This document shows positions 14,394-49,500 of a DNA stretch of 54,349 nt, piece by piece. Origin of the DNA: an uncultured virus (IMG/VR IMGVR_UViG_3300025103_000005) (taxonomy: Duplodnaviria > Heunggongvirae > Uroviricota > Caudoviricetes); IMG/VR virus record IMGVR_UViG_3300025103_000005. One strand, written 5' to 3'. Position numbers and translations under genes: made by a program. How positions within the stretch are numbered: position 1 is the stretch's first letter; each line of letters starts with the position of its first letter. The notes below the pieces were generated by a model, which saw nothing but the letters and a program-made list of their open reading frames with translations, made no database searches and had not been told where the DNA came from.

Positions 14394-15854
14394 TTGTTTA
14401 TCCATCGAAACGTCAAAGAGGTTGACCGCTTTCCGTCATTCGTGAGTGCAGTGTGGCCTATCGACCGAGCATTCGATATTCTGAAGGCTCAGACTACGTT
14501 AGACCAATGGGGAATGAAGCCAAAACCAGTGCCGAAGAGGAAAAATAAGATTTTTGAAAAATTAGAGAGGTTTCGTCGCTACGATGAGGTTCCTGACTCG
14601 GTAAAGATGCATTTGTTGCCCAAAAATCACGACCATTACCCTCACGAGTTCGCAAATGAGATGGATGAAATAAAGACGAATGCACCTTGGGGGCTCGATG
14701 TGCCTATGCATGAGAGGCTTCTGAATCAAGGTGACGGTTTGTCGTTCCAAGTGACTCAGGACCATATTGACGCACAATACAAAACAAAAGCAAGGGAATG
14801 GGCGGAAAGGCTACACAGGCTTAGAGGAGATGAAGAGCGGATTTCGTATCTCTCACCGACATATAAACAACGGAGGGAATGGTTTGGTGAAGATGGCTTA
14901 CTTCTTACGCCTCAAGAAAAATGGTATCTAAGAGACCAACCAGTATCGAGAACTCTTCTTGAACAAGATGCCTATCTGGAAGATAGGAATATCAAAAGGG
15001 AGCAGGCCAATTGGAATGAGTTAGAAAAGTTAGGATTTAGAGAAGACAGCCTAGAACTACCGAGTTATTATGCTATGCCTTTTAGTCCCATTCTCAATCC
15101 AGAGACTTCTCGTGATAGCACTTTACCTGAGCATGATTGGAGTCTCGATAGGACTACTGGTTGGGAGGGCATAGAGCCAGTTAGCGCTGTACGATACATG
15201 GCCCCCGAATATGCGATGGATGCGCAAAAACGGGGAATTAAAGGGCGTGAAATGGAGGAAGATTCTCAGATGTGGGAGCACGAGTTTCGGGGTACTCATG
15301 GAAGGAGGATGCCTTTTGAGGTGGGACCGCCGTGGCCGATGAGCGATTCGACTTATCGTGACCAAGATAATCCTTATCTTGGTAATTTTATGTTTCCTGC
15401 ACCAGCAATTGATAATGGAAGACTCCGTGACTCATCGAAGGAAAAAACAGCCCGTGTAAAGCCAGTGGGCTTTGGGGGGAGGGGGAGTGAGGACAAGCAA
15501 TGGATAGGAGTAAGAGGAAACCCGTCTAAAATGACGGGGCAATTTGCTAACACTGGACATGCTACAGAGGGGGCAGAGGCTTTTATTGAGGGAGATTTTC
15601 CACCAGAGCAACTTATTACTGGGGGTGTGCCGAAAACGTGGCAAACTCGCGCCACACTAGCGGGAAATCGAGAGTGGGGGCATTTACCAAATGCATTTAT
15701 TCAAGGATTGATGCCTGACGGTGCAGCAGACCACATAATGGGTTGGGAACAGAGAGATGGGATGTATACCTTCTATGATAAGAATCGCAACCACGTGCTG
15801 GGACCGATTTCCAGAGACGATATGGCTGAGAGAATATCCGGAGGCTTCCAATGA
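14394..15854 (+). CDS. Leader-family protein with putative ART/Tpt1-like C-terminal domain (true start probably GTG 14442 or 14451)
   Basis: PIDRAFDILK leader variant, then QTTLDQW; VRYM..KRGIK, GNFMF, IGVRG and EAFIEGDFPPEQL align by eye with 18094 and 21225. Confidence 0.6.
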   Translation: MFIHRNVKEVDRFPSFVSAVWPIDRAFDILKAQTTLDQWGMKPKPVPKRKNKIFEKLERFRRYDEVPDSVKMHLLPKNHDHYPHEFANEMDEIKTNAPWGLDVPMHERLLNQGDGLSFQVTQDHIDAQYKTKAREWAERLHRLRGDEERISYLSPTYKQRREWFGEDGLLLTPQEKWYLRDQPVSRTLLEQDAYLEDRNIKREQANWNELEKLGFREDSLELPSYYAMPFSPILNPETSRDSTLPEHDWSLDRTTGWEGIEPVSAVRYMAPEYAMDAQKRGIKGREMEEDSQMWEHEFRGTHGRRMPFEVGPPWPMSDSTYRDQDNPYLGNFMFPAPAIDNGRLRDSSKEKTARVKPVGFGGRGSEDKQWIGVRGNPSKMTGQFANTGHATEGAEAFIEGDFPPEQLITGGVPKTWQTRATLAGNREWGHLPNAFIQGLMPDGAADHIMGWEQRDGMYTFYDKNRNHVLGPISRDDMAERISGGFQ

Positions 15855-16516
15855 CGCCTTTCGACAAAGCATGGACTTTTCTCAAAGCACCTATGGTCGA
15901 TGGTAGTTTAGAAAGGCGCGACACGTGGCAAGATAATGAGGGGGATGAGAACGTTCGCTATGTCGCTGACTTCAAGCATCCTGAGACTGGCGAGATGCAC
16001 CCGATGGTGGCTGACATCAATCATGCCGAAACAGACACGATGTATGGGAGATTTTCACATCCGATGATAAACATGAACATTTTACCACCTAATCATGATG
16101 TAGGCGATGTGCCAAAAAACCGGATGTTCTCTGAAGAAGATAGTTACAGGCACTCAATAGCAGAGGCTTCCTTTCGACCTCAAGAAAGCGATAATAACTT
16201 CGCCAATAGGAACATGATAGGTATGCCGAGAGTTAAGGATGCTGGACCAATGAGAAGAATGAAAGGATTTGAAGATTGGAAAGAAGATAATCCTGAACAT
16301 TCAGACATCAGTTTGATGGATTATATGATAATGTTGGATAATTACAAACATCAGGGTCATGGGACTGCCATGTATGATATGGCTGCTGATGTTCTCGACA
16401 GGGAGACACGAGGAGGTCATGTAATTGTGCGCGATGATGACCAAACCAATAATGCTGAAAGAATGTGGGCGAAACACAAGCATAGAAGTAATTGGCCGCA
16501 TAGGGGGCAAAGATGA
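15851..16516 (+). CDS. Leader-family protein with GNAT acetyltransferase-like domain
   Basis: MTPFDKAWTFLK leader; acetyl-CoA motif A-like YKHQGHGTAMYD and QTNNAERMW. Confidence 0.65.
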   Translation: MTPFDKAWTFLKAPMVDGSLERRDTWQDNEGDENVRYVADFKHPETGEMHPMVADINHAETDTMYGRFSHPMINMNILPPNHDVGDVPKNRMFSEEDSYRHSIAEASFRPQESDNNFANRNMIGMPRVKDAGPMRRMKGFEDWKEDNPEHSDISLMDYMIMLDNYKHQGHGTAMYDMAADVLDRETRGGHVIVRDDDQTNNAERMWAKHKHRSNWPHRGQR

Positions 16517-17220
16517 CCCCTTTCAACCAAGCGTGGCAAGTTCTCAAAATGGCGAGATACAAAGTTGGGCCGACTGAATTTTGGGATAGGGATGAGCCGA
16601 TTTATTCAGGTAAAGATGAAGAGGACAAAAAATGGTTCGATGGAAAGGGTTTTCCACAAACGAGGGATTTAGGCGAGAAGCCGAGTCATTGGAAGGACGA
16701 TTGGCATGATTGGGAAAGCAAACGTATTATCCCGAATTATTTTCCGATGGGTGGGAGTCCGTGGTTTGGTAGGATGGCGGGCAAAGTTATGATGCGCCCC
16801 TCGGATTTTCTCAGTTTGGCGTCGTCGAGCGAGCCGGGATATTACGGGGCCGACGAAAAGGGTAATCTTGATATTAGCCATTATTTAGAATCAGAGACGG
16901 GCAAGGGTATTGAGGAAAATATGAGGGCGGGCGTGCCTACTTTTATTCCAAATCTTAGTGTGAGTAGGGGGAATGTTATAGGTCACGAAGGGAGACACAG
17001 GATGGCGGCTGTTCATAATTTGATGGGTGATGAGCCAGTGCCTGTGCAGATTTCAACGGATGATTATTACGATAATCGCGGACATCGGGGTGAATATCCT
17101 CATCCGGCCACACAAGAAATGATGGATGATTTAGTTGGTGTGAAACTACGAGGGCAATATGATGAGGAAAGAAATTTGGAACTCACTCCCGAAATGTTTA
17201 GGATGGAGGGACAACAATGA
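16513..17220 (+). CDS. Leader-family protein with ParB/sulfiredoxin-like domain
   Basis: MTPFNQAWQVLK leader; GHEGRHRMAA...VPVQI resembles the ParB DGxHR motif. Confidence 0.65.
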   Translation: MTPFNQAWQVLKMARYKVGPTEFWDRDEPIYSGKDEEDKKWFDGKGFPQTRDLGEKPSHWKDDWHDWESKRIIPNYFPMGGSPWFGRMAGKVMMRPSDFLSLASSSEPGYYGADEKGNLDISHYLESETGKGIEENMRAGVPTFIPNLSVSRGNVIGHEGRHRMAAVHNLMGDEPVPVQISTDDYYDNRGHRGEYPHPATQEMMDDLVGVKLRGQYDEERNLELTPEMFRMEGQQ

Positions 17221-17714
17221 ACCCCTTCAACCAAGCGTGGACTTTTCTCAAAGCCCCAATTTATGAAACGGGTATTCCCAACATCAATTTTGTTACACAA
17301 GGCCCATTTCCAGACCCTTTTTGGAGGGAAGAGGAAAATGTATACGGCTACGTTCCTGATGACCCAAAAGGGAATGCGTATGGCTATCGTGATGAAGGAA
17401 ATGAGGTTGGGGAAATTAGTTATATGACACCCGGTGAATACGGAAAAATGACTACTGGAGAGGAAAAGGGCGGTATATATATTGACATGTTGGGGAGAAA
17501 ATTCTCTCCAAGAGAGTCAGATGATACTTTCTACCAAGAGATGATGGACAGGGCGGAGGCGGGAGAGGACATCAAGTTCGGTATGCCGTATGTTTTTCCC
17601 GATTCTCAGCCTGAAACATATCATGAAGGGAGACATAGAATGGCTGAACTCTTCGCTCGTGGTCACGGTGATACGCCCTTACCAGTCAAAGTCATGAGGG
17701 GGACTCACGGATGA
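17217..17714 (+). CDS. Leader-family protein with ParB/sulfiredoxin-like domain
   Basis: MNPFNQAWTFLK leader; HEGRHRMAEL...LPVKV. Confidence 0.65.
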   Translation: MNPFNQAWTFLKAPIYETGIPNINFVTQGPFPDPFWREEENVYGYVPDDPKGNAYGYRDEGNEVGEISYMTPGEYGKMTTGEEKGGIYIDMLGRKFSPRESDDTFYQEMMDRAEAGEDIKFGMPYVFPDSQPETYHEGRHRMAELFARGHGDTPLPVKVMRGTHG

Positions 17715-18097
17715 ACCCCTTCAACCAAGCGTGGGGCTTACTCAAAGAGGACATGAGCAGAGACCCCTCATGGGTCGTAGGGGGCATGAGCGACGACATA
17801 GCGTTTGATGGGGAAGCGGATTGTGAGAAACACGTCAGAGAATGGCTAGTCAGTGTCATAGGCTTCATGAGAAACAAAGACCCTTCCGATACAGCAGATA
17901 GGGCGTATGACTTCTATGCTAATGCTCCCTTTCAACACTTAGAGGCACTCTTGAGAAACGAACCCAGTGAGTTGCATGAGAAGGCTTTGGGTATGTTGGA
18001 GGACTGCCGCCAAGCGAATCTAGCAGAGCAGACAGGAGATGCTGATAGCAATCTACCCCCTATGCATTTCAGTGAACACATGAGGGATGAAGAATGA
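17711..18097 (+). CDS. Leader-family protein with unknown acidic helical cargo
   Basis: MNPFNQAWGLLK leader; ATGA-coupled. Confidence 0.75.
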   Translation: MNPFNQAWGLLKEDMSRDPSWVVGGMSDDIAFDGEADCEKHVREWLVSVIGFMRNKDPSDTADRAYDFYANAPFQHLEALLRNEPSELHEKALGMLEDCRQANLAEQTGDADSNLPPMHFSEHMRDEE

Positions 18098-18582
18098 ACC
18101 CCTTCGACCAAGCGTGGCTTTTGCTGAAACAGACCCGTCAAAGCACGTTAGGTGAGTATCATCCCGATTTCCCCTCTCCGCACGGTGATGTGATGTGGTA
18201 TCACGGCACAACAGCAAGACCCTCTTCGATAATCAATCGTGAAGGCTTAACCCCCCAAACACCTAATTATCACAACACATTATCGACAAGGTTGGACCCC
18301 TCTTTGCCTTCTCAGTTCCCAACAGGGGTTTATGCAACAGGTAAATTAAAGGATGCCCAAAGGTACGCTTATGCGAGAGGTCAAGATAGAAACCAATCAA
18401 GTCAAGTATATGGGATAAGAGAAGGTGTCTCTGAAACCCCCCAAGACAGACGCCTTAGAGAAATTGGAGAAAGTGCAGGTCGTAACATATCAACTGTCTT
18501 AGAAGATGTTAGATTCAGTAATCCAATACCAAGGCAGTATATCACTCCGGTGCCGATTCCTCTAAATCAAAAGACAGTTTAA
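18094..18582 (+). CDS. Leader-family protein with ADP-ribosyltransferase (PARP/Tpt1-like) domain
   Basis: MNPFDQAWLLLK leader; WYHGT...IINREGLTP...GVYAT...DAQRYA...IPRQYI. Confidence 0.7.
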   Translation: MNPFDQAWLLLKQTRQSTLGEYHPDFPSPHGDVMWYHGTTARPSSIINREGLTPQTPNYHNTLSTRLDPSLPSQFPTGVYATGKLKDAQRYAYARGQDRNQSSQVYGIREGVSETPQDRRLREIGESAGRNISTVLEDVRFSNPIPRQYITPVPIPLNQKTV

Positions 18583-18590
18583 GTCCGTTT

Positions 18591-19433
18591 ATGGACTTCA
18601 GCATTTACGAAGTGGGACCGAGAGACGGATTACAAAGTAGCGATACTATAACCCCTACTCATAAGAAAGTAGAACTCATTGAGAAGATAGCACAAGTGGG
18701 CATTGATAAGATTGAAGTCGGCGCAATGGTGAATCCCGACAAGGTTCCGAATATGGCTGATAGCGAACTGGTTTTCAGTAGAGTGGCTTGGTTACAATCG
18801 CAGTGTGAATTAGGGATGCTTGTCCCTAATAGGAAAGGCGTAGAAAGAGCAATGGATGTAGGAGTTACCCAATACAATGTCTTCTTTTCGCCGTCTGATT
18901 ACTTCAATACGAGAAATCATGGAAGAACCATGTCTCATATCTTCACGTCTTATTGTCACTCTCTTGCCGATGTTCCGAAGGATAACATCAGAGTATATCT
19001 CTCCACTTCTTTTGGTTGTCCTATTGCAGGCGAGATTCCAAGAAACTTAATGGAGAAGGCGCTCGATTGGGCGGATACATTGGGCTCTACAATTGTTCTA
19101 TGTGATACGATTGGTAAGGCTAACCCTCCTCTTATCACCAAAACGATGGCTTGGACAGAGGAGTTAGACGCTAAGATTGCCCTTCATCTTCATCATGGCA
19201 AGAGAAGAGGTAGAATGAAGGATAATCTGAGTGCTGCTTTCGATTGTGGCGTGGAACAATTCGATTCTTCAATTGGAGGAATGGGAGGTTGCCCATTCAT
19301 ACCGGGAAGCGGTGGAAATCTCGCTACTGAAGAATTAGTGATGTGGGGAGAAAAGGAGAATCTGGATTGTGGCGTCTCTCTAAGTGACATGAAGCCGCTC
19401 ATCAACTATGTGAATAAGGCCATCAAGGTCTAA
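18591..19433 (+). CDS. hmgL: Hydroxymethylglutaryl-CoA lyase (DRE-TIM metallolyase)
   Basis: EVGPRDGLQ, DTIG, LHLH metal motif, GGCPF catalytic Cys loop, GNLATE. Confidence 0.9.
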   Translation: MDFSIYEVGPRDGLQSSDTITPTHKKVELIEKIAQVGIDKIEVGAMVNPDKVPNMADSELVFSRVAWLQSQCELGMLVPNRKGVERAMDVGVTQYNVFFSPSDYFNTRNHGRTMSHIFTSYCHSLADVPKDNIRVYLSTSFGCPIAGEIPRNLMEKALDWADTLGSTIVLCDTIGKANPPLITKTMAWTEELDAKIALHLHHGKRRGRMKDNLSAAFDCGVEQFDSSIGGMGGCPFIPGSGGNLATEELVMWGEKENLDCGVSLSDMKPLINYVNKAIKV

Positions 19434-20299: not shown

Positions 20300-20361
20300 G
20301 AACGTGTGATGGAGCGCAATGTATTAGACATATCGCAGTAGTGGCGTAGGTATAGGGAGTC

Positions 20362-20640
20362 GTGACGATGCCGAGAAACATACCCATCAACTGCGCCATC
20401 TCTCTTCTGAAAATGGGCAACTCCGCCAATGCTGCGATGATGCACGACCTTCCTTCATACATGGAAGAGGCGCTCAATCAGAAGAAAAAAACGCGTAGCG
20501 ATGCTCGAAAGAAGAAAGACAAGGCCGCGAAACTCCGTCAAGTAGTAGATGACCATGAGGAAGACGCCAGTGTAATTGACTATTATCGGCAAAATCATCC
20601 TGAGTGGTTTGGTGCATTTAGAGGCGGTGGCGGCGAATGA
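20362..20640 (+). CDS. Small basic hypothetical protein
   Basis: ORF track; PINCAISLLK resembles the leader. Confidence 0.65.
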   Translation: MTMPRNIPINCAISLLKMGNSANAAMMHDLPSYMEEALNQKKKTRSDARKKKDKAAKLRQVVDDHEEDASVIDYYRQNHPEWFGAFRGGGGE

Positions 20641-21218
20641 AGTTCGACCCGCGTTCAAAGAGCGGAAAGCCCAGCATCGCTATCATGATTGGCGTCAAGC
20701 CTTCAAAGAAGGATGACAAGAAGAAGTATGGCGGTGGGCCGGATATGAAGAAGGCTTGGAGGTATGAAGATAAACCCAAGCCAATCGACATGAGTGAACA
20801 TATACGAGGCGACCCAACAAGGCCATTCGGTCACTCTATGGAACAGGGGGATTCACTTATTGATACGGCACGACCAAGACGAATAAGGCAATATGCAGGC
20901 GATGTGCCAGAAGAAGGACTGGAAGACAGAGAGCCTGAAGGACAAATAGACTCAGAGTCTCTACGAGAAAGCAATCCCGAACTATTCGAGATGGATGACC
21001 CACGATGGAAAGACAGAGAGCCTGCACCAAAGGGTTACGAATATGGTAGAGATGGAAGACTTCGGAGAGTTTCCCCAGATGAGGGTAGAAGACCTTGGGA
21101 TTCAGATGACGTTTCTAATCTCTTAGCACGTAACAGGATGCAAGCCAAAGGTAATGATTCCATAGCCATGAGCATGGATGACCCGATGTCAGCAGCATGG
21201 GGTCTTCTAAGGGGATGA
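20637..21218 (+). CDS. Hypothetical protein with leader-like motif at the C-terminus
   Basis: Ends DDPMSAAWGLLRG; ATGA-coupled. Confidence 0.7.
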   Translation: MKFDPRSKSGKPSIAIMIGVKPSKKDDKKKYGGGPDMKKAWRYEDKPKPIDMSEHIRGDPTRPFGHSMEQGDSLIDTARPRRIRQYAGDVPEEGLEDREPEGQIDSESLRESNPELFEMDDPRWKDREPAPKGYEYGRDGRLRRVSPDEGRRPWDSDDVSNLLARNRMQAKGNDSIAMSMDDPMSAAWGLLRG

Positions 21219-21224
21219 CAAAGT

Positions 21225-22241
21225 GTGTCATCTGTTGCTGTAAGAAAGGCTTGGTACGATTCTACCAACTCCTTGTATGAGGATGATAGTCCCCCTAATA
21301 CTGGTGAAAACACTCGCCAGACTAAACTCTACAATTTCGACCCACGAATGGCCCATCCGAAGTATGGGGAAGATTTAGCAGCAATGCGGGCTACCGATGA
21401 AGAAGTATTGGGAAGTGGGCTAAAACCTACAGCGCAACCTCGTCACAATATAGAATGGGAAGAGGGAGTGAGTGAATTACTCGGCTCTAATCCTCGCTAT
21501 CCAGATGAGGAGATGCATGAAGTCACACATCATGGTGTGAAGTATTTGATGAGGCCAGATGGGAAAGTTCAGTTCCCCATCAAAGAGGGAGATAAGGGAA
21601 TATGGCTTACTCGACCTACTGAATCAGATGCAAGTCCCGGAGGATTGTTTACACACAGAGACGCTGATAAATTAGTTTTCGTTCGTGGTAAATCTAAGTC
21701 ATTGCGAGGAATGGGGAGAGCATATGAGCGAAACAGCGATGAGGCGCGAGAGAAGGTAGCAGAGATGTTTCTTCAACGAAAGAAGCCAATAGACCCAGAT
21801 AGACTTGTCGAAGTGCCTTTACCTAAAAATAAGCAAATGTGGCAAGTTTTGAGAGATTTAGGGCTTACGGGCGGAACAGATAATCATGGCCGAAGTAAAT
21901 GGGGTAATAAGGTACCAATTAAGAAGTTCTTTCCACTTCGAGGAGATGGATTAAACATGGGCGAACCAATGAACATAGCCTACCAGTTGCTCAAAGACCG
22001 CAAGTCGCCGGAGGCTTGGGCACACAAGTTGGAGTATGATAAGCAATATCAGAAGAATCCAAAGAGAGTCAAGTATCGTGAGCAATTGAACGCAGAACGT
22101 AGGAAGCGTGGCATATACGGCAAAGGCGGTGGCGATGTTAGCCATACTCAAGGTGGAAAACTGACGTTGGAAAGCCCTCATGCTAATCGAGCGCGACACT
22201 TCAAGGGGAAGGGAACACTTCGGAGAGTGAAGGTGAAATGA
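21225..22241 (+). CDS. Two-module protein: ART/Tpt1-like domain, internal leader, HNH-like basic domain
   Basis: AMRA..GSGLKP, GIWLT, FVRG, EMF..PIDPDRL; MGEPMNIAYQLLK at 21957-21995; DVSH...NRARH. Confidence 0.55.
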   Translation: MSSVAVRKAWYDSTNSLYEDDSPPNTGENTRQTKLYNFDPRMAHPKYGEDLAAMRATDEEVLGSGLKPTAQPRHNIEWEEGVSELLGSNPRYPDEEMHEVTHHGVKYLMRPDGKVQFPIKEGDKGIWLTRPTESDASPGGLFTHRDADKLVFVRGKSKSLRGMGRAYERNSDEAREKVAEMFLQRKKPIDPDRLVEVPLPKNKQMWQVLRDLGLTGGTDNHGRSKWGNKVPIKKFFPLRGDGLNMGEPMNIAYQLLKDRKSPEAWAHKLEYDKQYQKNPKRVKYREQLNAERRKRGIYGKGGGDVSHTQGGKLTLESPHANRARHFKGKGTLRRVKVK

Positions 22242-22468
22242 GTCCTTTTGACAAAGCGTGGGTCTTATTGAAGAATGTGACTGACCATGATGTCGATATG
22301 AGTAACCCAGTCAGTATAGAATCATGGAATGAACCGACAACGCCGTGTAGCAAATGCGGCCAATACGGTGCGAACATGCGTATGACATACAACAACAAGT
22401 TTGGTACAGATGAGCAAGAAAGGCATTATTGTGAGACTTGTTATCAGATTTCACATGGGAGAGAATAG
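22238..22468 (+). CDS. Leader-family protein with Zn-finger cargo
   Basis: MSPFDKAWVLLK; CSKC...CETC. Confidence 0.75.
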   Translation: MSPFDKAWVLLKNVTDHDVDMSNPVSIESWNEPTTPCSKCGQYGANMRMTYNNKFGTDEQERHYCETCYQISHGRE

Positions 22469-22469
22469 A

Positions 22470-22775
22470 ATGAATCCCTTCGACCATGCATGGACTTTGC
22501 TTAAAGAAGCCGAATGGCATCCCCCTAATACATTCGATAGTGATGAAATGACGAGGTATCTTCGTTATCATATGAATAATTTTCACGACAAGTTATCAAC
22601 AGAAGGGCAAGGAGAGGCTGCATTTTACATGCAGCAACTAGAGGGTTTCATAAATGCAGCAAATAAAGGGGAAGAGTATTTTGGCTTTATGACTCCTGAG
22701 TTTGCAGTTGGACAGATGAATAATTTGATTGATAAAGAAGGATTGAAAGATACCCAATTGAGGAATTTAGAATGA
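22470..22775 (+). CDS. Leader-family protein with unknown helical cargo (start re-assigned to 22470)
   Basis: MNPFDHAWTLLK begins at ATG 22470 after GGAG. Confidence 0.75.
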   Translation: MNPFDHAWTLLKEAEWHPPNTFDSDEMTRYLRYHMNNFHDKLSTEGQGEAAFYMQQLEGFINAANKGEEYFGFMTPEFAVGQMNNLIDKEGLKDTQLRNLE

Positions 22776-23512: not shown

Positions 23513-23516
23513 TTAT

Positions 23517-23804: not shown

Positions 23805-23810
23805 TGCTCA

Positions 23811-24741: not shown

Positions 24742-24745
24742 TACA

Positions 24746-27338: not shown

Positions 27339-27757
27339 TACCTATTTCGGACCTTATGCAAGTAAATCATCCGGGGTATCGGGTTTTCTGTATGGGTCAT
27401 AATATGCGTGAAGTGCACTATCCTGTATTCTTGGATTATTGCGTAAACGTATGTGAGAGATTCAGGTTTTATGCCCATCAACATAATGGTTCGATAATAG
27501 TCGAAAATAGCATTATGCAAGTCATAGAGTGTCTCAAGAATATAGATGAGACAGACGAGCCGGAAGAAGTGTTTCCACTTAGAGAGCAGATTCGTAACTC
27601 ATGCTATGAGTTCAAGATGCATTGCGATGAAATGGGGAGTAAGTTTACTCGACCAGATGCCATTACAGAGTTCTACGATAGAATCGCAGATTTGGTTATA
27701 GATGTAACATTCACATATGCGGGCGTAGAAAACCTCTATGAAAACAAGGAGGCATAA
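27335..27757 (+). CDS. Hypothetical protein (140 aa)
   Basis: ORF track; GTGA overlap. Confidence 0.7.
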   Translation: MIPISDLMQVNHPGYRVFCMGHNMREVHYPVFLDYCVNVCERFRFYAHQHNGSIIVENSIMQVIECLKNIDETDEPEEVFPLREQIRNSCYEFKMHCDEMGSKFTRPDAITEFYDRIADLVIDVTFTYAGVENLYENKEA

Positions 27758-27758
27758 T

Positions 27759-37127: not shown

Positions 37128-37478
37128 GTGAAGACCATGGACCTCATCAAAATGCACCCAATGGCGCGAAAAATGACAGCCCACAACGAAGAACTTGCGA
37201 AAGCAATAGAAGATGGTAATGCAGATGTCGCAAGACAGCACATTATGGAGATAATCAAGTATGCGAGCACTCTTGAAGACGACCTTCTTATGGCTGTGAA
37301 GAAAGGAGAGAACGAAGTAGTAGTGCCTGATAACTCATGGCAAGTCATGAAGTTCAATCAATCTGGTGCAAACTTCGACCCATCTATGAGGGGCGACCAA
37401 TTGCCCGGCACAATCATTCCAGCAAGAACAAAGCAGGCTATGAGGCCCGTACGCGGAACCTTTGGTCGAAGAGTCTGA
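37128..37478 (+). CDS. Hypothetical head-module protein
   Basis: ORF track; LAKA and VKKG motifs. Confidence 0.7.
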   Translation: MKTMDLIKMHPMARKMTAHNEELAKAIEDGNADVARQHIMEIIKYASTLEDDLLMAVKKGENEVVVPDNSWQVMKFNQSGANFDPSMRGDQLPGTIIPARTKQAMRPVRGTFGRRV

Positions 37479-37487
37479 GGCGATATA

Positions 37488-37835
37488 ATGGAAGAAGGGG
37501 ACGCAGGAAAACTCATGAATACTCTCATCTCTAAGATGGAGAGTATGGATAATGAGGTTCAGACGCTAAAGGCGGAGAATCTTATTCTCAAGAGAATGAT
37601 GGATAATCCTAAAGTTCTCTTACGTAAAGCAGGTTTTGTTCCTTTCAACACTCCTCTATCGGAAGACGTTGAGGTTGACGCTTTCAGAGCAGACGTGCAG
37701 ACTGGCGGACTTCTCAAGGCAGAGGTAGACTCCTCTGACCCAGATAAGTTTAGCAATACTGAGATTCACGAAATGAGTTGGGATGAGATACACGATATGG
37801 CAGACCAACATAGAGAAGTAAAGGAGATGTATTGA
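37488..37835 (+). CDS. Mini-scaffold-like protein
   Basis: Coiled-coil N-terminus; C-terminal MSWDEIHDMA matches MSWDEVHQLA of the protease/scaffold. Confidence 0.6.
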   Translation: MEEGDAGKLMNTLISKMESMDNEVQTLKAENLILKRMMDNPKVLLRKAGFVPFNTPLSEDVEVDAFRADVQTGGLLKAEVDSSDPDKFSNTEIHEMSWDEIHDMADQHREVKEMY

Positions 37836-38158
37836 TGGTAAAACCAAGATATGAAGAAACCTCGTCTGAGGTCCAAGAATTATTGATGAAAGCAATTGCA
37901 CTTGAAAAGCGTATAGATGAGGCAGAGATACAGAAATCATCTCATCATCCAGAAACTACTTTTGATACGAGGCCGGGTGGCGTTCAATTCATGGCAGAAA
38001 GTGGAGGGCAAACTTACAATGTCTTCTATAACACAAACCAATCACTTCTTGATTCCGATGATGTCGCTAACAAGGGTGCGTCCAGTGAGAGCGTAAATCT
38101 TGATAATACTCCAATGAAGAATACCCACGACACCGTAAACAGGCTTGTCGAGGGATGA
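37832..38158 (+). CDS. Hypothetical head-module protein
   Basis: ORF track; LMKA and IQKS motifs. Confidence 0.7.
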   Translation: MMVKPRYEETSSEVQELLMKAIALEKRIDEAEIQKSSHHPETTFDTRPGGVQFMAESGGQTYNVFYNTNQSLLDSDDVANKGASSESVNLDNTPMKNTHDTVNRLVEG

Positions 38159-41300: not shown

Positions 41301-44044
41301 CAATAATGAGACGATACGAGAATCTCATGGCGAAGTTCAACAAGGTATACGGGGATGAGATAATACGAACCAGTAGGGGTGCATACGGTGGGAGGCAAAA
41401 GCAAACATCATACGGTTGGCGTGATAAGGACGAGGATGTTATGCGAGGCGACAAAAAGGCTGTTACTAATTATGCTCGTGATGTCTTAATTCCAGAAGTT
41501 CTCAAAGCCCATCCTTCTGCATATCATCCGTCTAATCCTAAAGCGCTTGCTAATGTCGCCGCCACACTACAAGGCGCTATGAGGAGTATTTACAAGAAAG
41601 GGGGAGGAGGTCTTACTACTTCTGCTGCTTGGATTAGGCCTGCTGGCTCAAAAGCCGCATTATATGCTCCAGAATACAAGAAAGATGCGGATGGTGAACT
41701 CATACTTGACAAAGATGGTGAGCCGATATTAACAAAGAGGATTTCATCTGATGAGCAATATAGATTGGCTTCTTTGATGCAGCAAGGTGAAGTCGGAAGC
41801 AAGATAATTGGGGATGAGTCAATACATATGATTCTGAAGAAACTCGGTTTGCCAGACGATACTCCCCATCGCAAACATGTAAAGCACATGATGAAGACAC
41901 ACGGTGGTGATTTTACTGCTGCTACTCTCGGCCAATTAGCAACAGCAGGTATAGATTGGCAGTCGAATTATGAGAAGGATGAGAGGGGAAAGTATGTTCT
42001 CGATAAGGATGGGAGGAAAATCCCAGCAGCATCTCCATTTAAGAGTTTGAAAGGGGAAGATATCCATACATTTTTAGACGATAAAATGAAAGAACTTCAG
42101 GAGAGTTATCCAACTTCGGCAGCAACTGGACGTGAGAGCACAGAATACCAAGTAACACAACGCGCCTTACGAAGTGCATGGGACAAAACCCATAAGGGCC
42201 ATATTGCATTGAGAGGAATTAGAAATGTTGTGAATCTTCAACCTGACTTATTGAAGGGCTATGGATTAACCTTCCAATCTTCTCCTAACTACAGTAGGAA
42301 GAATCCAATGATTGCTCAACAGAAAGTTTCAGGCGAGCCTTTGGGGGATAGGGAATTGTTGTTCTCCCACAGAGATAAGACTGGCGATAGGAGAGATTTA
42401 ACTGATATGAAGAATATAGCAAACAGCATTCTCGTATTCGATGAAGGGGCATTGCAGGGAGAAACACTTCAAGCCAAGTTCGACCCTTTCGAGGGAAAGA
42501 AAGCGGTAGGATGGTATGACGATGTTCCAATCGAATCACATGATAGCGGAGAAGGGGCTATTCCTCATGACCACTACATCAGTGGAGGTATGGATGATGG
42601 TTATCTCGTCACACCAGAAATAGGAATTGAACACGATGAAGACGACAACATCGTCGTAGGCACTAATGCTACTGAGGGCTATTATCACACCGTACCATTC
42701 CAAACGTTACAGATGATGTTTCCACACTATAACAATGAGCATATACAAACTTTGATTGATAGCCACCCAGTTGAAGAAACGACCTTATCTAATCAACAAA
42801 CTCCATCCAGTGATACGGGATATCCACCATCAGCGGATTTTCCATCTGTTAGATACAGTGAACCAATGCATATTTCCAATCTGTTGTTGAAGGACAAAGC
42901 AGAGTTACCGAAGCAAGTTCCGCTCATTGACCCCCTTCATAGGATATTCGACATTGAAGATTTGAAGCAATTGAGAGGATTCACTGGTGAATGGGTCGTC
43001 TCAATTCACAAGGATGGAAAAAGATGCAAAGTGCAATGCAAGAAGAATCGTGTGACCGTATTCGACGATAGTGGCAATAAACAATCAATGAGTGAGAAAA
43101 TGAGGAATGCTTTCAAACAAATCGGAAAGAAGGATTACGTAATAGATGGCGTAATGCAAGACGGAGAGTTCCACGTTAATGATATTCTACTCTATGATGA
43201 CGATGTCGTATACGACCTCTCTACGCGTGAGCGCATTAAAGTGTTAAGGGGACAGTTCGATAGTTACGACCCTGTTTACATACCCAGCCCGTCTGATATT
43301 AGAATTACAGATGAAGTTGGTTTGGAGAATGCAGTGAAGGAGTTGAGTAAGGAGTCTGACAAGATACTCTTGAGAGATGCAAAGTCCACATACATGAAGG
43401 GAGAAGAAAAGCACCCTAAGTGGGTTCTATTGGCAAAATCGGACATAGAGTTCCACATACCTTTCTCTATGGAGATTGATGATAGTCACTTCATTATACA
43501 TCTTCCAGAGGACTTAGTGAAATACGAGATAGTAGATGGGGAGGCAATCGAGCCAATAGCAGCAATAGGTAGTCTTACTGATTCAGATTACTCTCTACGC
43601 CTCGCTAAGAGTCTTGAGCCTTATTGGAAAATAGCATTAAGTGAGATGTTAAAGGAAGAAACCGAGATAGAGCCTGAGATAGATGAGGAGAGGATAGAGG
43701 AAGAGAGTGCTGGCATACTCAAACCAAAGAAAGATAAGAATCTGATAATGAAGCCAAACGATGTTTACAAGACGCTCGTTCTCATAGAACGCGCAATAGA
43801 TGCAATGGAGAAGGGATTCAGCAATTTGGCTGGAAGAGGTTTTGGATATGATGTGGGCGATGGAACCGAGAGTCCACGCGGCCCTACGAAGTTGGATAGT
43901 GAGGAGTCTTTACCGGATTGGGACATGAGGAAACGGCCTACAGAGGATATGGAGAAGCCAGAGGACTATCCCGGTAGACGAAGGAAAGCGAAGAAAAATG
44001 CCGAGCAGTCCAACGAATTGGGAGAAAGAAGCCTTGAGGGATAG
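38312..44044 (+). CDS. Giant (1910 aa) head-module protein with C-terminal ATP-dependent ligase-like nucleotidyltransferase domain
   Basis: HKDGKR (KxDG), VIDGVM, FHVNDIL, ERIKVL, LLRDAKSTY..G...KWV; EPMHISNLLLK precedes the domain. Confidence 0.75.
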   Translation: MKEGPIDVYLRHRSELLKAIYDGTDPEQEVGDYLISTINLENHEIEFHPTSEDELCRGFSSDFLKAEEGGRSQPFASWRPAFHMEMGTRHPWRGRVKMAYDESDNDRFNFPLFTEKRKGETHSQFMERNKIPISMKHGLWPEVLPSRTRPVREKIVGKDGIERLVETGVETEPIENYTDVSPFDKKVHPLRRIRADTGKPEWEQMLREFYLGKNKWAEKVADAEKKHRAHWKKDAIGDGSEEYDTQTIYDSIPDGKFSFLGGDDGHKSEVTNHLHGLRLRDFERWKNGTGDWGGFNEEDGEKHKDRVKALDKEGKDLEEEHFNDRMEKLLSNDVTPITYKPEDPYGEWDKKGIESLADMTKVHAHGMGHSTLMRGLEFLSPEDRTIVMEHIATHGTDDPDLRHQYIELDDGHRLFMARIKQTKKQRQEGELHWFQRARMHSGANVPEHKEKPHDSFIHGDEGMIAGTLANTLVKDDGIHEGEPHQYARHASGEIDMDKEPKKMYDKTALEHVMEKLEEAYEGDGLLEYGEDRVDAGGLPIGKAKNLPKFSERDIEDIQSALSEGKDAKEALSEKLTNNSHIALGTEGFLDLMGWNRDLTERHKSHPLFSGRGSKALINKSIMRGILKNLKRVSGLSLSAKQIRSAMGAHIVNHGPKPEDISDEEREHYLDVEGRLKGLGFPQGGRIFAHRGGLGRELSTYVEMMHDFHADDIDWDKGEGISSELGDREQEGSGKIIPNSNTLGLWARAHPHFLPYGQNYHDTAHGIMATTDTNTHALHRIGTARHPGRNIKTNSSQYLSTRSPYFMARFMRENPSPQNFVMETKNLTTRSIMAHHFNSHNFATMTNTAKEWKEPPSKYKKDTDGELVLDKDGEPILSNRKGWTDEELARRVQPGDYGIRRVAALARLQAHANGRRNAFGNPGERMHITLKDLEDNPSFRASPDMDSMDYLAEMPHFKGSNIQDRLDAGLLDELEDFNVILDEMKSRNPPEELPADHPIMRRYENLMAKFNKVYGDEIIRTSRGAYGGRQKQTSYGWRDKDEDVMRGDKKAVTNYARDVLIPEVLKAHPSAYHPSNPKALANVAATLQGAMRSIYKKGGGGLTTSAAWIRPAGSKAALYAPEYKKDADGELILDKDGEPILTKRISSDEQYRLASLMQQGEVGSKIIGDESIHMILKKLGLPDDTPHRKHVKHMMKTHGGDFTAATLGQLATAGIDWQSNYEKDERGKYVLDKDGRKIPAASPFKSLKGEDIHTFLDDKMKELQESYPTSAATGRESTEYQVTQRALRSAWDKTHKGHIALRGIRNVVNLQPDLLKGYGLTFQSSPNYSRKNPMIAQQKVSGEPLGDRELLFSHRDKTGDRRDLTDMKNIANSILVFDEGALQGETLQAKFDPFEGKKAVGWYDDVPIESHDSGEGAIPHDHYISGGMDDGYLVTPEIGIEHDEDDNIVVGTNATEGYYHTVPFQTLQMMFPHYNNEHIQTLIDSHPVEETTLSNQQTPSSDTGYPPSADFPSVRYSEPMHISNLLLKDKAELPKQVPLIDPLHRIFDIEDLKQLRGFTGEWVVSIHKDGKRCKVQCKKNRVTVFDDSGNKQSMSEKMRNAFKQIGKKDYVIDGVMQDGEFHVNDILLYDDDVVYDLSTRERIKVLRGQFDSYDPVYIPSPSDIRITDEVGLENAVKELSKESDKILLRDAKSTYMKGEEKHPKWVLLAKSDIEFHIPFSMEIDDSHFIIHLPEDLVKYEIVDGEAIEPIAAIGSLTDSDYSLRLAKSLEPYWKIALSEMLKEETEIEPEIDEERIEEESAGILKPKKDKNLIMKPNDVYKTLVLIERAIDAMEKGFSNLAGRGFGYDVGDGTESPRGPTKLDSEESLPDWDMRKRPTEDMEKPEDYPGRRRKAKKNAEQSNELGERSLEG
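40881..42025 (+). repeat. Three dispersed copies of a YxKDxxGxxxLDKDGxxI peptide repeat
   Basis: 40881-40939 and 41673-41731 match at 55/59 nt; a diverged copy lies at 41969-42025. Confidence 0.85.
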
Positions 44045-44079: not shown

Positions 44080-45459
44080 ATGATTAGTGTGCTCGGTAGT
44101 AAACAACTGTTCAGACATGACGATGAGTCAATCGCCATCCTCAAGGGTGGTAACGACCTCATTGTCGCTGGCTACGCAAGCGTGGAAGTTGTAGACAAGC
44201 AAGGCGACGTAATAACAAAGGAGGCATTAAAGGACGCATTTCGTAAGTTCATGGAAAACCCATCTTACAGAAACGTTCAATTAGCGCACTCCAATATACA
44301 AGTAGGCGACGTAGTACCAAGTTACACAGATAATGAAGGGAGGTTGTGGAAAAGCGAAGTCGATGATGTCGGGATGTTTGTAGTAGTACAACTCCGTAAC
44401 GACATCGAGAAGGCCAAGGAAGTCTCAGCAGAGATTAGAAAAGGCGTTCTCAGAGGATTCAGTATCGGTGGTCAAGCGTTCAAAAGGGTTAGAAAATCAG
44501 ACCCAAAAAGAGGCGACTACCAAGAAATAAGCAAACTGGAACTTCATGAAATAACGATTTGTGAAAAAGGCATCAACCCCGAAGCAACATTCAGCATTCT
44601 AAAAGAAGATACGGAAGTGAACAATATGACAACAGAAAACGACGAAAACGATATGACAAAGCAACTGGGCGACGTTCTAACGCGCTTGGAATCACGTTTG
44701 GACGGTATGGAAAAGGGCGAGAAGCCTGCTTTCCTTGAAGACAAGAAGGACGATGACGACAAGAAGGACGACAAGAAGAAAGAGGCGGCGGAGATAACTG
44801 AGGAGCCAGTGGAGAAATCCAATGAGTTCTCAGATGTCATTACATCCGATTACTTGAATTGGATGGAAGACACTCTGAAGAGTGGCGGTGTGGACACAGG
44901 AGCCGCACGCGCACACTTTGATGGTCTGGAAAAGGCTAACCTCGGTTCCACTCCAGAAGAGATGGCCTCTAACGACCTCCAGCGAACTGGACAGGTTAAG
45001 GGACGCGTGCAGGAAGGTGGCAAGCCTTCAACTAACGCACTCGGTAAGACTACTGGTAGTGGCAAGGTTGCGAAGTCTGACTTCATCGACCCTCGTTCAC
45101 TAACGGACTCAGACATTGAGGCCGCTTACGAAGTTTACAAGGCTGCAGCCCTTGAGAACGAACTACGTGGAAGCCTCGAAGAGCAGTTCTCTACACGCTA
45201 CACGCACGAGAGGCAGTCCGAGATTGCCAAGGCAGAGGCAGCAGCATTCGATGCACGCAGCCCACTTGAGGCTATTCAGAAGTCCATCGAGGCACTTGGA
45301 GAGCGCATTGACGGACTTACTACATCAGCAGAAGCAGGAGAAGATTTCAAGAAGTCCGAGAGCGCCACTGGAATAGTGGTTCCTTCGACTGAGGATTTGG
45401 CACTAATGTCTTGGGACGAGGTTCATCAACTGGCCGATAAGACATTGAGCCCGGAGTGA
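44080..45459 (+). CDS. HK97-type prohead protease fused to scaffold
   Basis: IVAGYASVEVVDKQGD, catalytic His (LAH) and Ser (GFSIGG), EITI..GINPEA; acidic coiled-coil C-terminal half; directly upstream of MCP. Confidence 0.88.
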   Translation: MISVLGSKQLFRHDDESIAILKGGNDLIVAGYASVEVVDKQGDVITKEALKDAFRKFMENPSYRNVQLAHSNIQVGDVVPSYTDNEGRLWKSEVDDVGMFVVVQLRNDIEKAKEVSAEIRKGVLRGFSIGGQAFKRVRKSDPKRGDYQEISKLELHEITICEKGINPEATFSILKEDTEVNNMTTENDENDMTKQLGDVLTRLESRLDGMEKGEKPAFLEDKKDDDDKKDDKKKEAAEITEEPVEKSNEFSDVITSDYLNWMEDTLKSGGVDTGAARAHFDGLEKANLGSTPEEMASNDLQRTGQVKGRVQEGGKPSTNALGKTTGSGKVAKSDFIDPRSLTDSDIEAAYEVYKAAALENELRGSLEEQFSTRYTHERQSEIAKAEAAAFDARSPLEAIQKSIEALGERIDGLTTSAEAGEDFKKSESATGIVVPSTEDLALMSWDEVHQLADKTLSPE

Positions 45460-45492: not shown

Positions 45493-46659
45493 ATGGCACG
45501 AAACTACGTACGAACAATAACTGACATGGAGCGCTATTACTATGGCGCAGGGAACGCAATGGGGTATTCTTACTCCGGTAGTGAACTACTCAAGGCAGAC
45601 AGCCCAATGCTGTCTACCACTGGTGGAACTTACCAAGCAATTTATGGACGCAAAGTCTGGTCGCAACTGAACCAAGAGTTCAACGCTTTCAGTATTCTAC
45701 CCAAGAAGCCTTGGGACCGAAGTGGATGGCGCGTAATCACTGGTCGCCCCAATTCGGGCACTCTACACGGTGGAGTTGCAGAGAACGCAACACTACCTGA
45801 GACAGTCAAGCCGACTTTCCAGCACGTTGCTGCAAAGCCTAAGACTATCGCACACACCTTTGATATGTCCGAGACAGCGATTTTCCTCGCTGACAAGGAT
45901 GATGGCCTCGGAGATATCCGCTCGGTCATGAAGGAAGAAATGGGCAAACATCACGCTGAGATGGTGAACAAGATGCTTTGTACCGATGTCGACACACCTG
46001 CTGCTAACAACTTCGAGTCCTTGGACCGAGTTACAGCAGCATACAGCAACAACGCAACTACCACAACTGGTCTGGTTAATGGTCACGACAATCTAAGCGC
46101 TGACTCTGACCTCGACATATACAGTATCGACAGGAGTGCAAACTCATGGTCGAACGCTGAGATGAGCAACAACGCAGTGAGCAATGTCTCAACTGACAGA
46201 GTTCTTTCTCTCGACTTGATTGACGAGATGTTCCAGAAACTCTGGGTCCGTGGTGGTAACCCCAAGGTTATGCTAACCGGATATGACACACTAATGCGCC
46301 TGCAGCAACTATTGCAGAGCCAGCAAAGGTTCATGGAAGAGAAGAGAGTCACCCCCACCTACAACGGTGTAAAGGGTGTTCCGGGAATGGAAGCCGGATT
46401 TATCGTGGCTACCTACAACGGAGTCCCAATTATCCCAACCAAGAACATGCTGACGGATTCTATCAGTCGCGTTTACTTCTTAGATACAGATTACCTGCAC
46501 TTTAGCACAGCAATACCGACCCAATACTTCGAGTCGGGAATTGAGACCGGCGACCCCTTCGCCATCAACAGGCTGGGTCAAGAAGGACTCTACCGAACAA
46601 TGGGCGAGATTTGGACCACTTTCTTTGGGTCACAAGGAAGTCTGAGGGACTTGAAGTGA
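45493..46659 (+). CDS. Major capsid protein (HK97 fold)
   Basis: Follows protease; 388 aa; GGVAENATLP, YNGVPII motifs; strong SD. Confidence 0.88.
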   Translation: MARNYVRTITDMERYYYGAGNAMGYSYSGSELLKADSPMLSTTGGTYQAIYGRKVWSQLNQEFNAFSILPKKPWDRSGWRVITGRPNSGTLHGGVAENATLPETVKPTFQHVAAKPKTIAHTFDMSETAIFLADKDDGLGDIRSVMKEEMGKHHAEMVNKMLCTDVDTPAANNFESLDRVTAAYSNNATTTTGLVNGHDNLSADSDLDIYSIDRSANSWSNAEMSNNAVSNVSTDRVLSLDLIDEMFQKLWVRGGNPKVMLTGYDTLMRLQQLLQSQQRFMEEKRVTPTYNGVKGVPGMEAGFIVATYNGVPIIPTKNMLTDSISRVYFLDTDYLHFSTAIPTQYFESGIETGDPFAINRLGQEGLYRTMGEIWTTFFGSQGSLRDLK

Positions 46660-48073: not shown

Positions 48074-48379
48074 TTGTGGATGTCCAAGTTCGAGTTACAA
48101 ACACTTGATATTGACGACATCAGCAGAGCAGCCAAGCAAAATGTTCGTGCAGACATTAAATACGACAACCAGAAAATCAATACCGATGCTCCGCTAAAGG
48201 GCATCACTAAGAAGCAGAGGGCGAGAACCTCTGATATCGCAGACATACTCGATATTGGTGCTGGCACACGCTGTGCTCACTGTGGTATGCTTCACTTTCT
48301 ATGGAGGGCTACTTGTGGCGCTTGCGAAAGGCCTATGAAATATAACCTCGGAAGCCGTAATGAGGAGGCGAGGTTATGA
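48074..48379 (+). CDS. Zn-ribbon protein
   Basis: CAHC...CGAC. Confidence 0.7.
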   Translation: MWMSKFELQTLDIDDISRAAKQNVRADIKYDNQKINTDAPLKGITKKQRARTSDIADILDIGAGTRCAHCGMLHFLWRATCGACERPMKYNLGSRNEEARL

Positions 48380-49073
48380 ATGAGTTTGACTTAGCATGGA
48401 CCATCTTGAAGGGACTCCCCGAACAACAGATGTTTATAGAAGATTCAACACCTCCTAAAATGATGAACCAAAATAGGAGAATTAGTAGAATGGGAACAGT
48501 CAATCCTGCAATTGAGGGTATGTTATCAAGAGAGTGGTCTAATCATCCAGATTGGGGTGATAAACGTCCTAATTTAAGAATTAATTCAGAGGCAGCCCCA
48601 AATTACAAAGGGGATAGTTTATTGGATTGGACTCATTCCATAATTGATGGTTCTCAAGGACTACATGAAAAATGGTATCCGGGTAAAAAACGAGGAGCGT
48701 GGGGAACTGAGGGAGAAGATGTAGCGTATGACGATACTCCAAGACGCAACTCAACTCAAGATATTATTAACCAATATGACCCGAAAAAGCATGGAAACGA
48801 TATTGACCAGTATATGGCTGAGAATGACCCATCTACACGAAGAAAACTGGAAGAAGAGGAAGAAACAAGAAAAAGAGGTGAACAAGAAACTCAAGATAAT
48901 TTCAAAAATCTTCTTCAAGAATATGAACCGGAGCAATTTTTGGACCATCCTGACGGCTTAACTCCTATTCAAAGACAAAGAAGTAGATTAGAAGACATGG
49001 CTCGTGAGTTAGCAATGGCTCGCGGTATGCCTGACCCTCGTAATGAGGAGGCGAGGCTATGAATGAGTTTGAC
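48356..49073 (+). repeat. 35-bp direct repeats (48356-48390 and 49039-49073) flanking one gene
   Basis: cgtaatgaggaggcgagg(t/c)tatgaatgagtttgac, 34/35 identical. Confidence 0.9.
48376..49062 (+). CDS. Leader-family protein, unknown cargo
   Basis: MNEFDLAWTILK leader; ends RNEEARL like the upstream gene. Confidence 0.75.
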   Translation: MNEFDLAWTILKGLPEQQMFIEDSTPPKMMNQNRRISRMGTVNPAIEGMLSREWSNHPDWGDKRPNLRINSEAAPNYKGDSLLDWTHSIIDGSQGLHEKWYPGKKRGAWGTEGEDVAYDDTPRRNSTQDIINQYDPKKHGNDIDQYMAENDPSTRRKLEEEEETRKRGEQETQDNFKNLLQEYEPEQFLDHPDGLTPIQRQRSRLEDMARELAMARGMPDPRNEEARL

Positions 49074-49433
49074 CCAATGGATATTGTATTCCAATTACTC
49101 AAGGATTCTGCTAAAGTACGAGATGGTAGTCCGTTTGCCTTTCCTAAAAGAGATGACCCAAGATATGATTACCGGCACCGGCTCCAAGCGCCGCATACGA
49201 ATCCCTCTTTGGATTATCTGAAAAGACAAGCGGCTTTGTCACAACAATCAGCACCACCTATGGACCCTTCATGGACTCCTGAAGCAATAGCGAGAATCAA
49301 TGCTCAAAACGATGAAGCAAGGAGAGCACTTTCTCTGAAGGGCAAAAAAATCAATTGTGAAGATAATTCCCATGAAGAAGGTTGGTCATATTGCGGTAAG
49401 AGTGAATGTGTATCATGTGGCGGGGGTTACTGA
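49059..49433 (+). CDS. Leader-family protein with Cys/His-rich C-terminus
   Basis: MNEFDPMDIVFQLLK leader. Confidence 0.7.
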   Translation: MNEFDPMDIVFQLLKDSAKVRDGSPFAFPKRDDPRYDYRHRLQAPHTNPSLDYLKRQAALSQQSAPPMDPSWTPEAIARINAQNDEARRALSLKGKKINCEDNSHEEGWSYCGKSECVSCGGGY

Positions 49434-49434
49434 A

Positions 49435-49500
49435 ATGACAGCATTCGACAAGGCTTGGATATACTGTGGGTATAGTGAATTAGCCGAAGAGAACTCGTAA
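49435..49500 (+). pseudogene. Leader-only remnant or 21-aa peptide
   Basis: MTAFDKAWIYCGYSELAEENS*; first 8 aa match the leader consensus, LK end and cargo absent. Confidence 0.5.

Follow-up and report, generated by a model that had tools for sequence, protein, structure and literature searches.

A portable peptide tag on late proteins of a marine archaeal virus as a candidate address for prohead cargo

Introduction

In bacteriophage T4, the internal proteins IPI-III and Alt carry a capsid-targeting sequence (CTS), which is removed by the prohead protease gp21 through cleavage after Glu (excerpts of PMC9026906). Internal head proteins trimmed by the prohead protease are likewise described for P1 (DarA) and for SPN3US and phiKZ as head ejection proteins (excerpts of PMC12810830, PMC7411985, and PMC5694885). 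In addition, multi-module proteins with ADP-ribosyltransferase (ART), GNAT, and other domains are encoded among late virion genes as polyvalent or MuF-fused effectors and were proposed to be injected (excerpts of PMC5512222). Here, we analyzed a stretch of 54,349 nucleotides from an uncultured magrovirus (IMG/VR record IMGVR_UViG_3300025103_000005), referred to in its full length as the window, in which a 12-residue peptide, termed the tag, recurs on otherwise different late proteins, the cargos. Short, position-flexible cargo-loading peptides that send diverse cargo into an HK97-fold shell are also known from encapsulins, which are cellular, leave the peptide uncleaved, and do not eject their cargo.

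As far as the T4 system is covered by the excerpts cited above, the tag resembles the CTS in that a peptide of about ten residues is common to unrelated, polymorphic proteins and precedes a prohead-protease site used on capsid and core proteins; moreover, an ART is among the cargo in both cases. It differs in that the magrovirus is an archaeal virus with an S78 protease fused to the scaffold and an apparent cut after Lys instead of Glu. In addition, the magrovirus tag is also found internally and C-terminally, with up to four copies per protein, and on about 190 cargo families in our sample, which are known from their sequences. Because protease family, cut residue, and tag position all differ, the tag would work like a CTS without being homologous to it. 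Cargo of the types seen here is also reported for virion-borne polyvalent proteins in the excerpts of PMC5512222; in contrast to these, the magrovirus modules have a short, putatively cleavable tag in front of or between them and are also found as separate tagged genes. For the P1, SPN3US, and phiKZ proteins, the excerpts describe propeptides specific to each protein instead of a single short tag shared by hypervariable cargo.

A search of the literature by titles and beginnings of abstracts retrieved no description of such a tag, nor is one given in PMC12999244 and PMC10768690. In the excerpts of PMC5434244, PMC10160649, and PMC11706807, the term "leader" is absent and "motif" is used in another sense only. 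Most genes of the abundant, uncultured magroviruses lack an annotation. The tag assigns a likely location, the inside of the head, to about one sixth of the late genes, and it makes about 190 protein families candidates for injected effectors that act against marine archaea, a group with little-known antiviral defences. Capsid targeting as in T4 would thereby be extended to archaeal viruses that use another protease, with internal tags and polyproteins in addition, and the tag would be a short peptide by which proteins could be brought into an HK97-fold shell. Furthermore, the site avoidance described below is a cheap signature applicable to other phage groups and, if true, a general computational test for head-resident phage proteins.

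Results and Discussion

The tag is a protein-level module of the late strand

The tag is amphipathic and has the consensus M-x-[P/A]-[F/M/I]-[D/E/N]-x-A-[W/F]-x-[L/V/I]-L-K. The original prediction, made from the sequence of the window alone, had listed ten such peptides as N-terminal leaders. All ten are present on the plus strand, and eight of them begin with Met at the gene start and have the 12-residue form (Table 1). The other two do not stand at residue 1: the tag of gene 49059 is preceded by M-N-E-F-D, and that of gene 14394 lies 21 codons into a TTG-started open reading frame (ORF) and is N-terminal only if GTG 14442 or 14451 serves as start.

Chance does not account for the tag. With a profile threshold of at least 12 bits, 11 genomes and the window gave 107 matches on the capsid strand compared to four on the other strand and one in shuffled translations; the training loci of the profile stem partly from the same 11 genomes, and two genome pairs are near-identical. 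Based on crude gene calls in 14 genomes, 122 of 745 late genes but only five of 593 early-strand genes are tagged. Two of these five carry real tags on genes inverted within the late cluster, while three are weak matches lacking the Lys. Two findings had been named in the original prediction as speaking against it, namely occurrence of the motif on early proteins and a translation-initiation artefact. Neither was found, and codon analysis revealed a module at the protein level. Key columns of the tag hold 1.6-2.0 bits at codon position 2, compared to less than 0.4 at position 3 of four-fold columns. In the column three residues before the end, T is fixed at codon position 2 and the first position is free, indicating selection for a hydrophobic residue. 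Internal tags usually read G-E-P-M, which could be taken for an internal start with a hidden Shine-Dalgarno (SD) sequence. This was ruled out by the usage of the Gly codon, which is GGT or GGA in 13 of 28 tags (not independent of each other) compared to 1014 of 1388 in the background and is thus less SD-like, so that the internal copies are not hidden starts. Among 133 strong non-terminal tags, 121 end in K and one in R, with the last residue left unscored in the search. We conclude that the tag is real and functional at the protein level.

The DNA pattern for the tag was found in 100 stretches of viral contigs. From these loci, 24 records were examined, of which 22 encode a capsid protein 60-100% identical to that of the window and two are partial. 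Prokaryotic genomes gave 20 matches, two of them on contigs carrying this capsid gene. A 6.7-kb contig (C41 of G027) with a magrovirus capsid gene and tags lies in a Flavobacteriaceae metagenome bin and probably represents mis-binned viral DNA.

Tags at all positions and rapid exchange of modules

The restriction to N-termini that had been assumed did not hold. The window has internal copies at 21966 and 28179, a C-terminal copy at 21183, and a degenerate N-terminal copy at 20383. Among 357 unique matches, of which the weakest few are chance, 251 are N-terminal, 79 internal, and 11 C-terminal, and one 960-aa protein of genome G007 contains four internal tags. The cargos differ widely, as had been proposed, with 332 modules falling into 192 clusters, 141 of them singletons; however, not all are unrelated, since those of genes 16513 and 17217 share an EGRHR core.

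The same module can be a tagged stand-alone gene in one genome and lie behind an internal tag in another, and the cargo of gene 49059 of the window is fused behind an internal tag in genome G008. In gene 27738, the tag is located near residue 140. Its 63 homologs comprise 38 with one tag, 16 with two, and nine with none detected; those with two tags are all 530 aa or longer, which suggests that new modules often arrive with their own tag. Turnover is high: a tagged gene is shared with a median of 0 of 13 other genomes, compared to 11 for untagged late genes (several genomes are partial). Copies of the tag are 60-89% identical at the DNA level, and a 35-nt duplication with 97% identity, at 48356 and 49039, spans the starts of genes 48376 and 49059. 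The duplication suggests that recombination at gene starts helps tag cassettes to spread, and recombination at tag DNA probably helps cassettes to move as a secondary effect.

The putative protease site is enriched in the scaffold and avoided in cargo

HK97-type proteases can cut after Lys, and prohead proteases generally act inside the prohead. The cleavage after the terminal LK that had been suggested is matched by a sequence pattern, i.e. the tag ends in a hydrophobic-x-Lys site that is enriched in the scaffold and present in the propeptides of capsid and protease. In the protease-scaffold fusion, hydrophobic-x-Lys-[S/A/G] is 5.8-fold enriched over shuffles (122 sites compared to 21 expected, ten genomes). 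Enrichment was 4.2-, 5.0-, and 4.9-fold for the three small genes after the portal, 3.1-fold for the 34155 protein, and 1.95-fold for the 29624 protein, while terminase, portal, capsid, tail, and early proteins reached 0.8-1.6 times the shuffled level; these counts come from orthologs and are hence not independent. The N-termini of capsid and protease end in the tag-like hydrophobic-x-Lys pattern in all genomes shown. The ELLK-A noted earlier in the capsid protein is present, and its K34 is found in all of the 34 capsid proteins aligned. Of 122 full-length distant capsid representatives, 93 keep a K-x-D-type motif close to the N-terminus, and 77 of these 93 have L, I, F, V, or M two residues before the K.

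The cargo shows a depletion. One module was taken from each cluster of at least 41 aa (189 of 192 clusters), and counts in these 189 modules, with the ends trimmed, were compared to the expectation from local composition. A hydrophobic residue two positions before Lys was seen 125 times compared to 239 expected (ratio 0.52, bootstrap 0.42-0.62). The deficit is limited to this offset (other offsets 0.93-1.19) and to Lys (Arg 1.14, Glu 1.16, Gln 1.14), and 357 early proteins and 475 untagged late proteins gave ratios of 1.09 and 1.14, respectively. It was observed in modules that follow an N-terminal tag (0.53) or an internal tag (0.47) and in those that precede an internal tag (29 seen, 60 expected), and vanished when Pro precedes the Lys (22 seen, 18 expected; small numbers). 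The 12 cargos of the window itself contain eight sites compared to 18.9 expected, five of the eight being in the 14394 protein. The untagged HMGL gene (18591) in the middle of the cluster showed no avoidance (62 seen, 56 expected; 12 orthologs). The lack of internal sites suggests that the cargo probably meets the head protease and was selected to survive it. An enriched scaffold, a depleted cargo, and neutral bystanders are together what a protease acting within a closed compartment that contains scaffold and cargo would be expected to produce.

Two further proteins of the head module were noted in this context. The product of 37488-37835 ends with an M-S-W-D-E-[I/V]-H motif, as does the scaffold (44080-45459), in both clades described below, and is probably a second capsid-binding, scaffold-like protein. 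A LAGLIDADG-like protein between terminase and portal (34155-35297) is conserved in 11 of 11 genomes, and its roughly 3-fold enrichment in putative protease sites is odd for a homing endonuclease; judged from this pattern, it may have been domesticated for a role in the head.

Cargo identities

According to its structural model (predicted local distance difference test, pLDDT, 76), the cargo of gene 18094 is an ADP-ribosyltransferase fold closest to KptA/Tpt1 (VIA-align, Z 10.0, root mean square deviation 2.4, 85 residues aligned). All ten database homologs retrieved have the tag at or close to their start. The cargo of gene 15851 has Atlas feature matches to GNAT clusters (0.91-0.93), a motif-A-like G-x-G/A column in an alignment of 11 sequences, and a weak PDB match to RibT (E 0.13). 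The cargos of genes 16513 and 17217 are tentatively ParB/sulfiredoxin-like, the former with a weak match to SbnI (E 0.49) and the latter with a model of low confidence (pLDDT 54) that matches Osa, ParB, Srx, and SbnI best, at E>2. For the cargo of gene 14394, no Pfam, PHROG, or usable Atlas match was obtained. Relatives contribute NUDIX, HD, SLOG-like, and DUF6321 cargos, and several recurring cargos are short basic peptides. The "enzyme arsenal" of the original prediction is thus borne out by some enzyme-like cargos but overstated: of 150 modules searched (out of 187 chosen representatives), nine have a Pfam match at E<=0.005 and four pass the curated cut-off.

Effector-type domains among the late genes comprise ART, GNAT, and, weakly, ParB-like ones. 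MuF had no match among the 54 window proteins in Pfam or PHROGs, which a divergent MuF could escape. In the four records examined, bacteriophage homologs of three cargos are surrounded by genes for the head and for packaging, and a pattern resembling the T4 CTS was found in none of 17 proteins of these records. The phrog_6437-type module of gene 21225 is N-terminally tagged in genome G010 and lies untagged beside the capsid gene of phage S-CBS2. The 1910-aa protein (38312-44044), located between portal and protease, has a hypervariable body; in haloviruses, MuF- and zeta-toxin-annotated genes take the equivalent position. A tag-like stretch at 42866 in this protein scores 4.5 bits, is not conserved, and was not counted as a tag.

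A sister clade carries a different tag

Relatives with a more distant capsid protein form a sister group of the window's clade in a quick tree. One 20-kb piece from this sister clade has a GC content of 32%, similar to that of the Aoguangviridae exemplar (PMC10768690). Four sister-clade genomes contain no copy of the window's tag and carry M-S-W-x-D-I-L-K instead, which matches the tail of their own scaffold, M-S-W-x-D-I-H. The same tail motif is present in the scaffold of the window, against which the tag of the window's clade nevertheless does not score. One cargo pair is shared between the clades; its members are 84% identical, each with the tag of its own clade, and the module is untagged in phage S-CBS2, near the capsid gene. 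The head-module proteins of HVTV-1 (19229-28017) and HCTV-1 (19830-29560) share another repeated stretch (R-V-Y-V/I-D ... Y-Y), often after a Lys site, which is possibly an analogous addressing module.

Head loading as the preferred mechanism and its alternatives

We propose that the tag is a portable peptide that both addresses cargo to the prohead and allows its release there. Many unrelated late proteins that turn over fast carry the tag N-terminally, internally, or C-terminally. The F/A/W/L face of the tag would dock on a prohead component, either the capsid interior or the scaffold. As suggested by three sequence signatures, the S78 protease would then cut after hydrophobic-x-Lys and thereby destroy the scaffold, trim the capsid, and remove the tag, and internal tags would let one polypeptide yield several modules. 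Cargo that has lost its internal sites, as the statistics show, would survive maturation in the head. By analogy to T4, some of it, e.g. NAD-using and acetyltransferase-like enzymes, could enter the host together with the DNA, while basic peptides may alternatively bind DNA inside the head. Head loading with release by the protease is in our view the most likely mechanism, with a probability of about 0.72, and by analogy to T4, some or all of the cargo is likely to be ejected. A more far-reaching picture, for which we see somewhat less than an even chance, is that magroviruses operate a position-independent system that loads hundreds of exchangeable modules, resolves polyproteins by the protease, and injects the modules into marine archaea as a hypervariable arsenal for counter-defence or host takeover, with sister families using different, interchangeable tags.

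Several observations weigh against head loading and release. Cutting after Lys by the protease at 44080 is deduced from sequence patterns. The cargo of gene 14394 shows no avoidance (5 seen, 5.2 expected), and avoidance is not exclusive to cargo, as terminase orthologs have a ratio of 0.65 for Lys (Arg 0.86). Capsid and portal lack a deficit (1.12 and 0.86) though they must meet the protease; their folds may protect them. In the sister clade, avoidance is weak (174 seen, 206 expected; 0.85; 58 clusters; Arg 1.20), and one of 109 cargos matches a cargo of the window's clade. Mimicry of the scaffold tail is not supported for the window's clade, where the tail scores -6 to -15 bits as a tag and a loose likeness in helical register remains. 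Excision of internal tags via a second upstream site is not supported either, since a site of this kind directly precedes only 14 among 81 internal or terminal tags; upstream modules would thus keep their tag. Most cargos have no recognized fold (141 of 150 modules without Pfam match), and 50 kb each of the cultured relatives HVTV-1 and HCTV-1 contain no tag that reaches 9 bits.

The weight of the proposed mechanism is partly shared with a variant of its last step, in which the released proteins are loaded but stay in the head as core filler or as DNA-condensing or assembly-tuning proteins, and the enzyme-like cargos are a minority or relics. Recurring short Lys/Arg-rich modules (DUF6321 and others), the location of their phage homologs between scaffold and capsid genes, the many modules without a Pfam match, and the influence of T4 IPIII on head assembly (excerpts of PMC9026906) are all consistent with it. 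We nevertheless regard it as unlikely, because the very high turnover suits a conflict with the host better than a structural role and because ART-fold, GNAT-like, NUDIX, HD, and SLOG-like cargos would presumably need NAD, acetyl-CoA, or nucleotides and thus the cytoplasm. With a hydrophobic moment of 0.41-0.75, the tag could also be an amphipathic helix that localizes late proteins by binding membranes or docking on a host partner, its final Lys being incidental. Eight of the 20 prokaryotic matches indeed fall on the N-terminal helix of long bacterial proteins from a single family, which resemble ABC permeases, and the cluster adjoins conserved membrane and GTPase-like genes (22832-26618). 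Such a helix should, however, tolerate Arg in place of Lys, which the tag almost never does, and would leave the avoidance of hydrophobic-x-Lys in cargo only unexplained; transmembrane segments are moreover rare in tagged proteins (3 of 118 compared to 50 of 586), which makes this explanation rather improbable.

The Lys ending and the avoidance would be explained equally well if the tag were a degradation or timing signal that recruits a viral or host Lys-specific protease or a chaperone in the cytoplasm without packaging, provided that only tagged proteins are recruited to the protease, and some magroviruses encode thermosomes or chaperonins (excerpts of PMC11706807). This appears quite improbable, given that the sister tag copies the scaffold tail, which speaks for the capsid and not for a free enzyme, and that tagged genes are inserted within head operons. 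The general confinement of prohead protease activity to the prohead is a further argument against it. Finally, the identity between tag copies, the 35-nt duplication over two gene starts, and a potential GGTGA ribosome-binding site hidden in the internal G-E-P-M could be accommodated by a DNA-level feature, i.e. a duplicated translation-start or recombination cassette with the peptide as by-product and internal starts at the internal copies. This reading is largely refuted by the codon analysis, since synonymous positions vary freely while amino acids do not and the Gly codon of internal tags is less SD-like than the background; it also does not account for C-terminal copies or for the avoidance in cargo, and we give it hardly any credence.

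Placement of the virus and additional features of the window

The minus-strand block of the window (1-13791) encodes an SNF2 helicase, a DNA ligase, and small genes, and the plus-strand block from about 14400 contains terminase (32607), portal (35279), the S78 protease-scaffold fusion (44080), capsid (45493), and tail tube (51817). The capsid protein has matches in only nine records of annotated phages, eight of which are haloviruses of the HVTV-1/HCTV type (31-33% identity). Ligase-like and LAGLIDADG-like genes are embedded in the head module, as described for magroviruses in the excerpts of PMC5434244. The window thus combines the characters of the Magrovirales, namely a Druskaviridae-related capsid module, the embedded ligase and LAGLIDADG-like genes, and early and late modules on opposite strands, and the virus is a magrovirus (Magrovirales; Poseidoniales virus). 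A Poseidoniales assembly (G026) contains a 106-kb contig with a 65% identical capsid gene and nine tags within 6 kb, which belongs to a relative and not to this virus. Group A of the Magrovirales is resembled in the halovirus-related capsid, portal, protease, and terminase module, in relatives of 100-115 kb, and in HMGL-like and helix-turn-helix (HTH) genes. From size, the HMGL and HTH genes, and the Aoguangviridae-like GC content of the sister clade, the virus probably belongs to group A (Apasviridae).

Table 1 Tagged genes and related features of the window
Position	Strand	Tag	Description
14394..15854	+	degenerate, PIDRAFDILK, core 14457-14486	486-codon ORF; probable start GTG 14442 or 14451; weakest member
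15851..16516	+	15851-15886	GNAT-like acetyltransferase cargo
16513..17220	+	16513-16548	ParB/sulfiredoxin-like EGRHR cargo, tentative
17217..17714	+	17217-17252	ParB/sulfiredoxin-like EGRHR cargo, tentative
17711..18097	+	17711-17746	cargo without homolog in 11 genomes
18094..18582	+	18094-18129	cargo with predicted ADP-ribosyltransferase fold, nearest KptA/Tpt1 NAD-binding domain
18591..19433	+	untagged	HMGL-like gene (Pfam PF00682) inside the cluster; internal control
20362..20640	+	degenerate, N-terminal, core 20383-20412	clearer tags on orthologs in G007 and G012
20637..21218	+	C-terminal, core 21183-21212, ends in R	
21225..22241	+	internal, core 21966-21995	two modules; tag ahead of basic 81-aa module (phrog_6437)
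22238..22468	+	22238-22273	small Cys-rich (zinc-ribbon-like) cargo, two CxxC
22470..22775	+	22470-22505	
27738..29627	+	internal, core 28179-28208	conserved protein; tag marks cassette insertion point; inserted module DUF3293-like
37128..38158	+		three small, conserved genes with many hydrophobic-x-Lys sites; products probably prohead core proteins
38312..44044	+		1910-aa protein, C-terminal ligase-like domain
44080..45459	+		prohead protease (Peptidase_S78) fused to scaffold; putative processing enzyme
45493..46659	+		major capsid protein; putative 34-residue propeptide ending in ELLK (K34 ends at 45594)
48376..49062	+	48376-48411	gene inserted among head-completion genes
49059..49433	+	core 49074-49103	

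Within the late cluster, a low-complexity gene (19430-20299, minus strand) is inverted, and a similar inverted gene is found at the same place in G007; at the matching position, G010 and G011 contain inverted tagged genes. The gap between early and late genes (13910-14312), immediately 5' of the first tagged gene, contains eight copies of a 12-nt repeat (GCATACCGCAAG-like), a possible origin, packaging, or regulator-binding site. A perfect 28-nt AT-rich direct repeat (12235-12262 and 13818-13845) lies upstream of two minus-strand genes and is a possible early promoter. A non-coding region contains a 32-bp imperfect inverted repeat and a GC-rich hairpin (12352-12466; 12889-12916); Rfam gave no match. 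On the early strand (1004-4731, minus), a tyrosine-phosphatase-like protein adjoins an 810-aa protein without assigned family. A conserved block common to both clades (22832-27757) encodes membrane proteins, a small GTPase-like protein (weak Roc match), an AbrB/MazE-like protein, and zinc/HTH proteins, and perhaps serves egress.

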